Source: a virus. From it: a DNA stretch of 64,000 nt. The notes under the pieces are model-generated. The model was not told the origin of the DNA and searched no databases. It saw only the letters and a program-made list of their open reading frames with translations. A program made the translations under genes and the position numbers. Where the stretch lies: positions 8,005 through 72,004 of the IMG/VR virus record IMGVR_UViG_3300032163_000010; one strand, written 5' to 3'. This document shows, in pieces, positions 13,487 through 13,790 of the stretch. Each line of letters begins with the position of its first letter. Within the stretch, counting starts at the first letter, position 1.

Positions 13487-13790
13487 GAACAAAGCCGGTC
13501 GATGAGGGTCAGGGAGCAGATCCTTGCCCTCACGATAGACGGTCCGAATCCTTAGTAGTGGGGGATAAAAAACTGGTAGTGCACCCAGCCTAGACCACAA
13601 CCACGCAAAAAACTGTGGCAGGAATAGGACCGTTGAGACCGCCTGAGGGGGTCAGATGCCTCGGCGTTTGGCTCTCCAGGAGACGGTCATGCGGGAGAGT
13701 AAATCGAGACAGCGTGAAATGGCGGGCCAGGGGCCCTTCGCCTGTCAACGGACTGCTCGGAACTCAGATCCCGCGATGCCGGAGGTCATG
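13487..13790 (+). ncRNA. Putative large structured RNA, family unknown
   Basis: About 300-nt GC-rich intergenic stretch with nested stems TGAGGG/CCCTCA, GACCGT/ACGGTC, GCGGGA/TCCCGC, GACAG/CTGTC, GGGCC/GGCCC. Confidence 0.55.

Follow-up and report, generated by a model that had tools for sequence, protein, structure and literature searches.

The 64,000-nucleotide (nt) stretch analysed here (the window) comprises bases 8005 to 72004 of the 72,004-bp IMG/VR virus record IMGVR_UViG_3300032163_000010, which originates from sediment metagenomes and is rated 100% complete. Between the stop codon of a 112-aa winged helix-turn-helix-like gene (wHTH paralog 4) and the start of a 170-aa open reading frame (ORF), both on the + strand, the window contains a gap whose predicted fold indicates that positions 13495–13782 probably constitute a structured RNA. 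Its folding statistics and strand bias, its missing coding signal, its place in the genome and one strain variant that keeps the structure make it a strong candidate. Whether it is a real + strand, cis-encoded, lineage-specific, non-coding RNA domain serving at this boundary as a gate or stabiliser of the early transcript is, in our judgement, about evenly balanced. The original prediction, made from the sequence letters, had placed a multi-domain RNA of about 300 nt here (13487–13790); this reading stands with respect to its exceptional strand-favouring fold, its closed non-coding frames and the lack of a known family, but one of the five helices that it proposed is not the favoured pairing.

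The gap between two early genes has an exceptional, strand-biased fold

The 321-nt stretch around the gap folds on the + strand to −139.7 kcal/mol (z = −6.19), a value that none of 100 dinucleotide shuffles equalled, compared with −119.9 kcal/mol (z = −2.74) on the − strand. Among the 717 300-nt + strand windows of the 72-kb record, 13487–13786 ranked first by raw energy (−131.5 kcal/mol; mean −76.1, s.d. 10.9) and again once energies had been regressed on base composition (residual z −3.73; runner-up −2.97). Folded singly, all of the arms described below beat their own shuffles (z of −4.0 for P2, −2.4 for P3, −4.8 for P4 and −3.2 for P5), and the strand bias comes chiefly from P4 and also from P2.

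Paired bases make up 68% of the element, against 60.5 ± 2.8% in shuffles, and A accounts for 49 of the 92 unpaired bases (53%), against 42 ± 2.4% in 200 shuffles. The fold comprises 104 pairs, 11 of them G-U, which bears out the earlier description of A-rich spacers with many G-U pairs. The A-rich unpaired bases, the high paired fraction and the G-U pairs of P4 are signs typical of natural RNAs.

In the minimum-free-energy fold, the candidate RNA core (13495–13782, + strand, ~288 nt) is a five-way junction closed by P1, a 5-bp stem (13495–99/13778–82) with a mean pair probability of 0.90 and a minimum of 0.58; pair probabilities are mostly >0.9 in P2, P4 and the base of P5. P2 (13500–13534; z −4.04) is a 14-bp hairpin with a 5-nt loop, and P3 (13538–13634, closed by 13538–45/13627–34) is a three-way domain with the sub-hairpins P3b (13558–13598) and P3c (13601–13618), the latter bearing an A-rich loop. 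P4 (13637–13688; −33.0 kcal/mol, z −4.84) is a 22-bp hairpin with an AGA bulge and with G-U in 5 of its 13 apical pairs. It is also the most strand-specific arm, its − strand counterpart reaching just −17.5 kcal/mol (z −0.86). P5 (13691–13774, closed by 13691–96/13769–74) is an irregular stem, the base of which is a near-canonical bulge-helix-bulge (BHB).

Four of the five helices in the original prediction recur in this fold: the long hairpin is P2, the three-way junction closed by GGTC/GACC is P3, the CCAC/GTGG hairpin forms the pairs 13601–05/13614–18 of P3c, and the long irregular stem closed by GCGGGA/TCCCGC is P5. The exception is the multi-way junction supposedly closed by GACCGT/ACGGTC, which costs 9.7 kcal/mol (−130.0 versus −139.7) and the 3′ segment of which pairs with 13637–41 in P4 instead. 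We also considered a switch built on the repeated GACGGUC/GACCG segments and rejected it, the alternative pairings being 8.4 and 9.7 kcal/mol worse. Inspection by eye revealed no K-turn, C/D-box or H/ACA features.

P3b combines an AGA bulge and an 8-nt A-rich bulge with an 8-nt loop (13577–13584) that contains the self-complementary hexamer GUGCAC, so that loop–loop pairing of two RNA copies would be possible. By our own arithmetic, a 6-nt palindrome is expected in an 8-nt loop by chance about once in 20 cases (~5%).

Three arms share a layout resembling bulge-helix-bulge motifs

P3b, P4 and P5 have a common layout, in which a basal helix of 4–6 bp is followed by an AGA bulge on the 3′ strand, a helix of 3–4 bp and an A-rich bulge on the 5′ strand (8, 1 and 3 nt, respectively). 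AGA makes up three of the five pure 3′-side bulges in the fold, all three being close to the base of the arm concerned. P5 begins with a 6-bp helix that leads into the 4-bp helix GAGU/ACUC (13697–13700/13762–13765, all Watson–Crick), which carries the 3-nt bulges AAA (13701–03) and AGA (13766–68) on opposite strands and is followed by a 5-bp helix.

PMC4090602 defines the BHB as a helix of 4 bp with a 3-nt bulge on either side, the two bulges being on opposite strands, and gives the introns that it bounds as 11–129 nt long. A central helix of exactly 4 bp is present in P5 and P4, while that of P3b has 3 bp. With regard to the bulges, P5 has an extra unpaired A at 13761 facing the first bulge, and the bulge sizes of P4 (1 and 3 nt) and P3b (8 and 3 nt) lie outside the two-3-nt rule. 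At best, the three modelled arms would be relaxed forms of the motif.

Using a stringent BHB-like pattern, the criteria of which were set after P5 had been seen, we recovered P5 as the sole + strand match in 72 kb, where shuffled genomes average 0.3; loose rules returned 371 + strand motifs in the record. When BHB-bounded inserts were excised in silico, ARAGORN found no tRNA or transfer-messenger RNA (tmRNA) gene in any of 8 combinations.

The gap lacks a convincing coding frame and a known RNA family

Stops occur 7, 4 and 2 times in the three frames of the gap, whose scores under a codon model taken from the virus itself are −0.44, −0.37 and −0.15 bits per codon, against +0.46 for the 112-aa gene and +0.47 for the 170-aa ORF on either side. 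A public gene caller places a 50-aa ORF at 13656–13808 (+ strand), inside P4–P5, where it forms a one-member cluster in the protein collection. No relative of its product was found among 5.8 billion proteins. Its coding score is +0.13, out-of-frame shadow ORFs averaging −0.10 (s.d. 0.10) and some small neighbours lying in a like range; a GAGG stands 7 nt before the ATG, both being inside the 13-bp stem of P4. We regard this ORF as probably spurious. With the only gene call in the gap being relative-less and the frames non-coding, there is no conserved protein-coding signal here of the kind that the original prediction had named as evidence against itself.

At gathering scores, none of the 4,227 models of Rfam 15, which include tRNA, SRP RNA, RNase P RNA, group I and II introns, known ribozymes, GOLLD and ROOL, matched anywhere in the window. 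At E ≤ 10 over 13300–14000, two short, chance-level matches appeared, one to Ocean-VII (14.9 bits, against a gathering score of 53.5) and one to a 21-nt pseudoknot model (E = 6.4). ARAGORN called no tRNA gene in the window, and a tRNA with or without inserts was discarded as an identity for the element, there being no call either directly or after excision. RNase P was discarded as well, because the archaeal family model (RF00373) does not match the element; its two sub-threshold matches in the 72-kb record (genome 1991–2200; E = 0.1 and 3.2) both fall outside the window. The same search gave matches in 13 of 14 control genomes, in 4 of them above the family cut-off. The earlier failure to place the element among known RNAs thus held in the Rfam, tRNA and RNase P searches alike, and as far as its sequence tells, the element belongs to no curated RNA family.

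We also searched GC-rich, ORF-free gaps in three relatives (G002, G003 and G005), and the sole outcome was a tRNA cluster in G005, a distant relative (locus L210, 18029–18431). ARAGORN and Rfam call one tRNA-Thr there (18385–18458). A further stretch at ~18051–18167, called by neither tool, shows by eye an acceptor stem of 7 bp and a T-arm that lies ~80 nt from the D-arm, which suggests a tRNA with inserts. Given that this tRNA-like stretch was missed by both, such tools may not be decisive for tRNAs with unusual introns.

A strain variant keeps hairpin P2, and searches for homologues return only the element itself

Contigs carrying parts of the locus occur in three other sediment runs. The contig from run X2 is identical to the window over 13369–13717. 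That from run X3 (13380–13580, depth 3.8) differs inside the RNA only at 13515–13523, the tip of P2, where it has three substitutions, two insertions and one deletion. Applied to P2, these changes keep the hairpin (−20.2 versus −19.6 kcal/mol), which gains a pair and has GGAA as its loop. Such changes are expected under selection on structure, although they come from a single low-depth contig. A diverged contig seen in runs X2 and X3 extends 178 nt past 13416.

A covariance model (R1) was constructed from this single sequence and its predicted structure. It had no match at E ≤ 1 in the records of 46 of 64 TerL-related loci, the 18 left out being mostly short contigs or near-duplicates, or in 86 further loci. 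Searching IMG/VR with the flanking proteins and with alignments as queries yielded no homologous locus. A two-motif pattern returned at least 118 unrelated stretches from IMG/VR; when R1 was run on 80 of these, together with the loci L002–L004 and the genome G001 described below and the window, only the window itself matched. A 16-mer search of IMG/VR gave 3 chance loci, none of which matched R1, and a genome scan gave one weak and irrelevant match in a Pseudomonadales metagenome-assembled genome. The element is single-copy, with no second copy in its own genome and no terminal inverted or direct repeats of a mobile element.

Scanning metagenomes identified three loci with related wHTH genes (L002–L004). 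Two of them, L002 and L004, end 49–68 nt past the gene, and the third has a 70-nt gap followed by a small ORF, with nothing similar to the element in the ~350 nt downstream. The nearest relative of the virus is G001 (TerL 76% identical; 53 kb, 89% complete), which is syntenic with the window over 25.7–62 kb and with the packaging/head side, the replication, nucleotide-metabolism and structural blocks sharing 45–85% protein identity.

The element probably lies within an early transcription unit of a tailed virus

The encoded terminase, tape measure and tail proteins identify the source as a tailed virus. It has no cultured relative, the best matches to its TerL among cultured phages being 22–25% identical. 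It also encodes a clamp loader and a family B polymerase; the clamp loader did not assign a host, its Atlas neighbours being viral or spread over several archaeal phyla. The polymerase ORF (29864–33379) carries a ~315-aa intein-like insert at window positions 31655–32599. This insert follows YGD, starts with Ser, ends with HN before TDS and holds a LAGLIDADG_3 domain at residues 806–871 (E = 7.5e-5), and G001 has no match to the ~920-nt insert segment. From these sequence features, polymerase motif C therefore appears to be split by an intein, and splicing would restore it.

The 112-aa gene (13148–13486, + strand) lies directly 5′ of the RNA. Its product has 8 relatives at E ≤ 1e-3, itself excluded, and no Pfam family at E ≤ 0.01. 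The AlphaFold model has a mean predicted local distance difference test (pLDDT) score of 67.2, and its best Foldseek matches are winged-helix proteins, namely BlaI (E = 0.012), Fur, MarR and STIV F93, alongside ribosomal chains of 71–72 residues, which we take to be eS25; none of these matches reaches E ≤ 0.001. The element had been located correctly behind wHTH paralog 4, but a pLDDT of 67 and a best E value of 0.012 make the winged-helix fold itself the less certain part of that statement. On the other side, the 170-aa ORF (13795–14307, + strand) heads a tightly packed downstream gene block. Relatives of its product were searched for and none was found.

The wHTH gene and the element together lie in the top GC island of the genome (13097–13896; 58% versus 46.4 ± 3.6%). 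The coding region of wHTH paralog 4 at 13187–13486 has a GC content of 0.56 and folds to −113.6 kcal/mol per 300 nt, fourth of the 717 windows by raw energy, and the 150-nt window 13201–13350 inside it has a z of −3.61. The structured zone may extend into this gene. The wHTH leader does not appear to be part of the structure, with a fold z of only −0.38.

A pattern search located a BRE/TATA-like archaeal promoter (BRE, B-recognition element) at 12972–12986 (+ strand), which is presumed to start the transcript of the wHTH gene and the RNA. It exactly matches the early-promoter consensus of the virus, GAAAGTTTTAWATAG, which occurs on the + strand with 0–3 mismatches at 4710, 8707, 9214, 12972, 19741 and 26206. 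Across both strands of the window there are 9 matches at ≤3 mismatches versus 3.7 expected, with 0 mismatches at 12972 and 9214. No match lies between 12986 and 19741, and the gap itself contains neither a TATA-like element nor a T-run. A T6 run at 13849–13854 (+ strand), 55 nt into the 170-aa ORF, is a possible archaeal termination signal; from 11000 to 17000, the + strand has no other run of ≥5 T. At the 3′ end of the element lies the ribosome site of the 170-aa ORF (13781–13799, + strand). Its GGAGG (13781–85) shares 2 nt with the 3′ strand of P1, and its ATG at 13795 is covered by a hairpin of 6 bp (13785–90/13794–99), so that most of the site is taken up by P1 and this hairpin.

T6 runs follow wHTH paralogs 1, 2 and 3 as well (3478, 4364 and 9133), and together with the promoter consensus they define short regulator transcription units. 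The 277-nt gap after wHTH paralog 3, the equivalent of the gap studied here, holds T6/T5 runs, a consensus promoter and a leader. The assertion that the genome otherwise has little intergenic space therefore needs qualification: several gaps of 160–380 nt occur in the early region, but those that were read hold T-runs and promoters and this gap holds neither.

A paralogous RNA behind the other wHTH genes was looked for and rejected, as there is no sequence likeness and the gaps after paralogs 1–3 hold T-runs and promoters. The region 3′ of wHTH paralog 2 (4105–4375) folds strongly (−90.2 kcal/mol, z −4.84; 0 of 200 shuffles as good), ends in a hairpin and the T6 run at 4364, and contains a Cys-rich 44-aa ORF (4186–4320); despite its strong fold, it has no sequence likeness to the candidate RNA. 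The strongest 150-nt fold in the scanned part of the window, which reached 37.8 kb, is at 26551–26700 (−66.6 kcal/mol, z −7.85) and spans the junction of wHTH paralog 5 (26285–26572) and a 63-aa winged-helix-like ORF (26578–26769).

A possible role in cis and its alternatives

Having no promoter of its own, the RNA would be transcribed together with the winged-helix gene from the promoter at 12972. The transcript might stop at the T6 run (13849), in which case the RNA would form a long 3′ untranslated region, or the RNA might be a spacer in read-through transcripts that cover the next ~6 kb of early genes, which have no consensus promoter of their own. Either way, we think it most likely that the RNA acts in cis at this boundary, as a gate or stabiliser that would govern the share of transcript or translation reaching the downstream block from the regulator gene, possibly once a protein has bound the three similar AGA-bulged arms. 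A more far-reaching proposal is that the element is the first representative of a new class of large cis-acting archaeal-virus RNAs that control how host RNA polymerase, or the transcript, moves on from an immediate-early regulator gene into the early block. Such RNAs would be archaeal equivalents of the antitermination or attenuation RNAs of phages and might act together with the Elf1-like factor of the virus, the three AGA-bulged arms being targets either of a protein or of a splicing endonuclease that excises a circular RNA. We consider this proposal a long shot.

Several observations weigh against a dedicated RNA acting in cis. P3 and P5 are equally stable on the − strand, and with the wHTH gene also high in GC, the RNA does not stand out by composition. 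Scans of IMG/VR, phage and plasmid collections (blastn) and 46 related virus records returned no homologue. The best wHTH orthologue, in L002 (49% identity), is followed ~45 nt past its stop by a GGTGA motif resembling a ribosome site, and judging from this sequence, that relative is therefore probably without such an RNA. G001 matches almost nothing in the 23-kb early region (window 2.7–25.7 kb), which it has assembled in part; its contig ends (L079–L081) fall there, and missing assembly may explain part of the difference. By this sequence comparison, the RNA therefore sits in a hypervariable early region. The X3 contig, at its low depth of 3.8, has a 1-nt deletion in the wHTH gene at 13406 and may hold errors. 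The T6 run encodes Phe-Phe, and one TTTTTT among eight Phe-Phe pairs equals the codon-usage expectation. Finally, opening the ribosome site of the 170-aa ORF costs 6.2 kcal/mol, only the fourth highest of 19 neighbouring gene starts (range 2.5–9.6), and translational occlusion alone is therefore a weak argument.

Among the other explanations, we find it fairly unlikely that a stable RNA is cut from the early transcript and acts in trans on a host or viral protein, either as its scaffold or as its decoy, its three arms being repeated binding sites and its GUGCAC loop perhaps pairing two copies. The compact fold closed by P1 resembles independent RNA units, the AGA bulges are all on the 3′ strand near the arm base, the unpaired bases are A-rich, and the element is far more elaborate than a stabiliser or terminator requires; however, the gap has no promoter or terminator of its own, homologues are lacking, and the palindrome would be expected about once in 20 cases by chance. 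If there were no function at the RNA level, the gap could be a GC-rich segment that arrived along with the wHTH gene, the remains of a decayed gene, a mobile-element remnant or a DNA-level site, with the fold as a by-product. The whole cassette (13097–13896) being the top GC island, the location in a hypervariable region unmatched in the nearest relative, the lack of relatives of the element and the equal stability of two arms on the other strand all agree with this. A z of −6.2 against dinucleotide-preserving shuffles and rank 1 of 717 after composition correction do not, nor does the reliance of P4 on G-U pairs, which work only in a + strand RNA. There are also no mobile-element terminal repeats and no second copy, and the hairpin survives the strain changes at the P2 tip, so that we judge an absence of RNA-level function unlikely.

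The BHB-like arms raise the further prospect of a substrate for the host tRNA-splicing endonuclease, in which the motif of P5, perhaps with relaxed ones in P4 and P3b, would be cut and ligated to release a ~65-nt circular RNA (~13703–13767) and leave a 6-bp hairpin with a 7-nt loop. The 4-bp helix and two opposite 3-nt bulges of P5 match the motif, and the 65-nt intron falls within the 11–129-nt range, as both are given in PMC4090602. The stringent + strand motif is unique in 72 kb versus 0.3 expected, looser repeats of it occur in P4 and P3b, and a tRNA-like stretch missed by tRNA tools is present in the related record G005. Against these points, the canonical form is disrupted by the unpaired A at 13761, the 5′-strand bulges of the other arms deviate from it (1 nt in P4; 8 nt, on a helix of 3 bp, in P3b), loose motifs are common (371 on the + strand), the stringent rules postdate the sight of P5, and excision creates no tRNA or tmRNA in the 8 combinations. 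On balance, such processing seems very unlikely. Least credible of all is that the gap encodes a small basic protein, the 50-aa ORF at 13656–13808, to which the fold would be secondary. This ORF was predicted by a gene caller, scores +0.13 against −0.10 (s.d. 0.10) for shadow ORFs and has GAGG 7 nt 5′ of its ATG, but it has no relative, leaves half of the structured region uncovered, has its ribosome site and start hidden within the 13-bp stem of P4, is Arg-rich and of low complexity in sequence, and overlaps the start of the next gene by 14 nt.

If the fold of the proposed cis-acting domain is confirmed, it would provide a compact 288-nt object for studying early-gene timing in archaeal viruses and would let one ask whether viral transcripts enter the host tRNA-splicing machinery. 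It would also suggest that hypervariable early regions of uncultured archaeal viruses hold lineage-specific RNAs that are invisible to homology-based catalogues.

Comparison with known RNA systems

To our knowledge, few RNA elements have been described in archaeal viruses, and for no archaeal virus do we know of an RNA acting as a gate between early genes, be it for transcription or for translation. A survey of the literature, excluding supplementary files, on archaeal viruses together with bulge-helix-bulge motifs, splicing endonuclease, or non-coding or structured RNA found no comparable element.

The candidate shares with archaeal BHB sites, such as those of tRNA introns and rRNA processing stems, the bulges and 4-bp helix of P5 and an intron-sized insert, as described in PMC4090602. 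It differs from them in that P5 has one extra unpaired base, that it lies outside any tRNA, rRNA or coding exon, and that excision gives no recognisable RNA.

The lysine riboswitch is a five-way-junction aptamer, and junction-type aptamers can have a closing P1 that overlaps the ribosome site. Similarly, the 3′ strand of P1 in the element runs into the GGAGG of the next gene, with the start codon in an adjacent hairpin. Unlike these riboswitches, the element has no family match, and occlusion of the ribosome site is ordinary for its operon. We know of no junction riboswitch aptamer as large as the element, and a ligand-binding core conserved across genomes, as in riboswitches, was not found, no search having returned a homologue.

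The put RNAs of phage HK022 and EAR of Bacillus are cis-acting RNAs of 70–120 nt that modify bacterial polymerase for terminator read-through. As judged by sequence signals only, the element is placed in a comparable way, as it follows an early promoter and precedes the first terminator-like signal of the operon, and expression of all the genes further downstream would require read-through, but it has no sequence or structural likeness to them. We are aware of no put- or EAR-like RNA for the archaeal polymerase.

Klein, Misulovin and Eddy reportedly described in 2002 the Hgc RNAs, GC-rich structured RNA genes that stand out as GC islands in archaeal genomes. The element is likewise the most GC-rich and best-folding stretch in a genome of lower GC, although its GC island also covers a protein gene, it is viral rather than cellular, and it is known here from sequence alone.

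GOLLD, ROOL and OLE are large, ornate non-coding RNAs of bacteria and phages, of unknown function and all represented in Rfam. The element differs from them in being smaller (288 nt), in having no Rfam match and no relatives found, in belonging to a virus with archaeal-type promoters and in its position inside an operon without a promoter of its own. What it has in common with these RNAs is a multi-domain, junction-rich and virus-borne architecture that is recognised by structure rather than by function.

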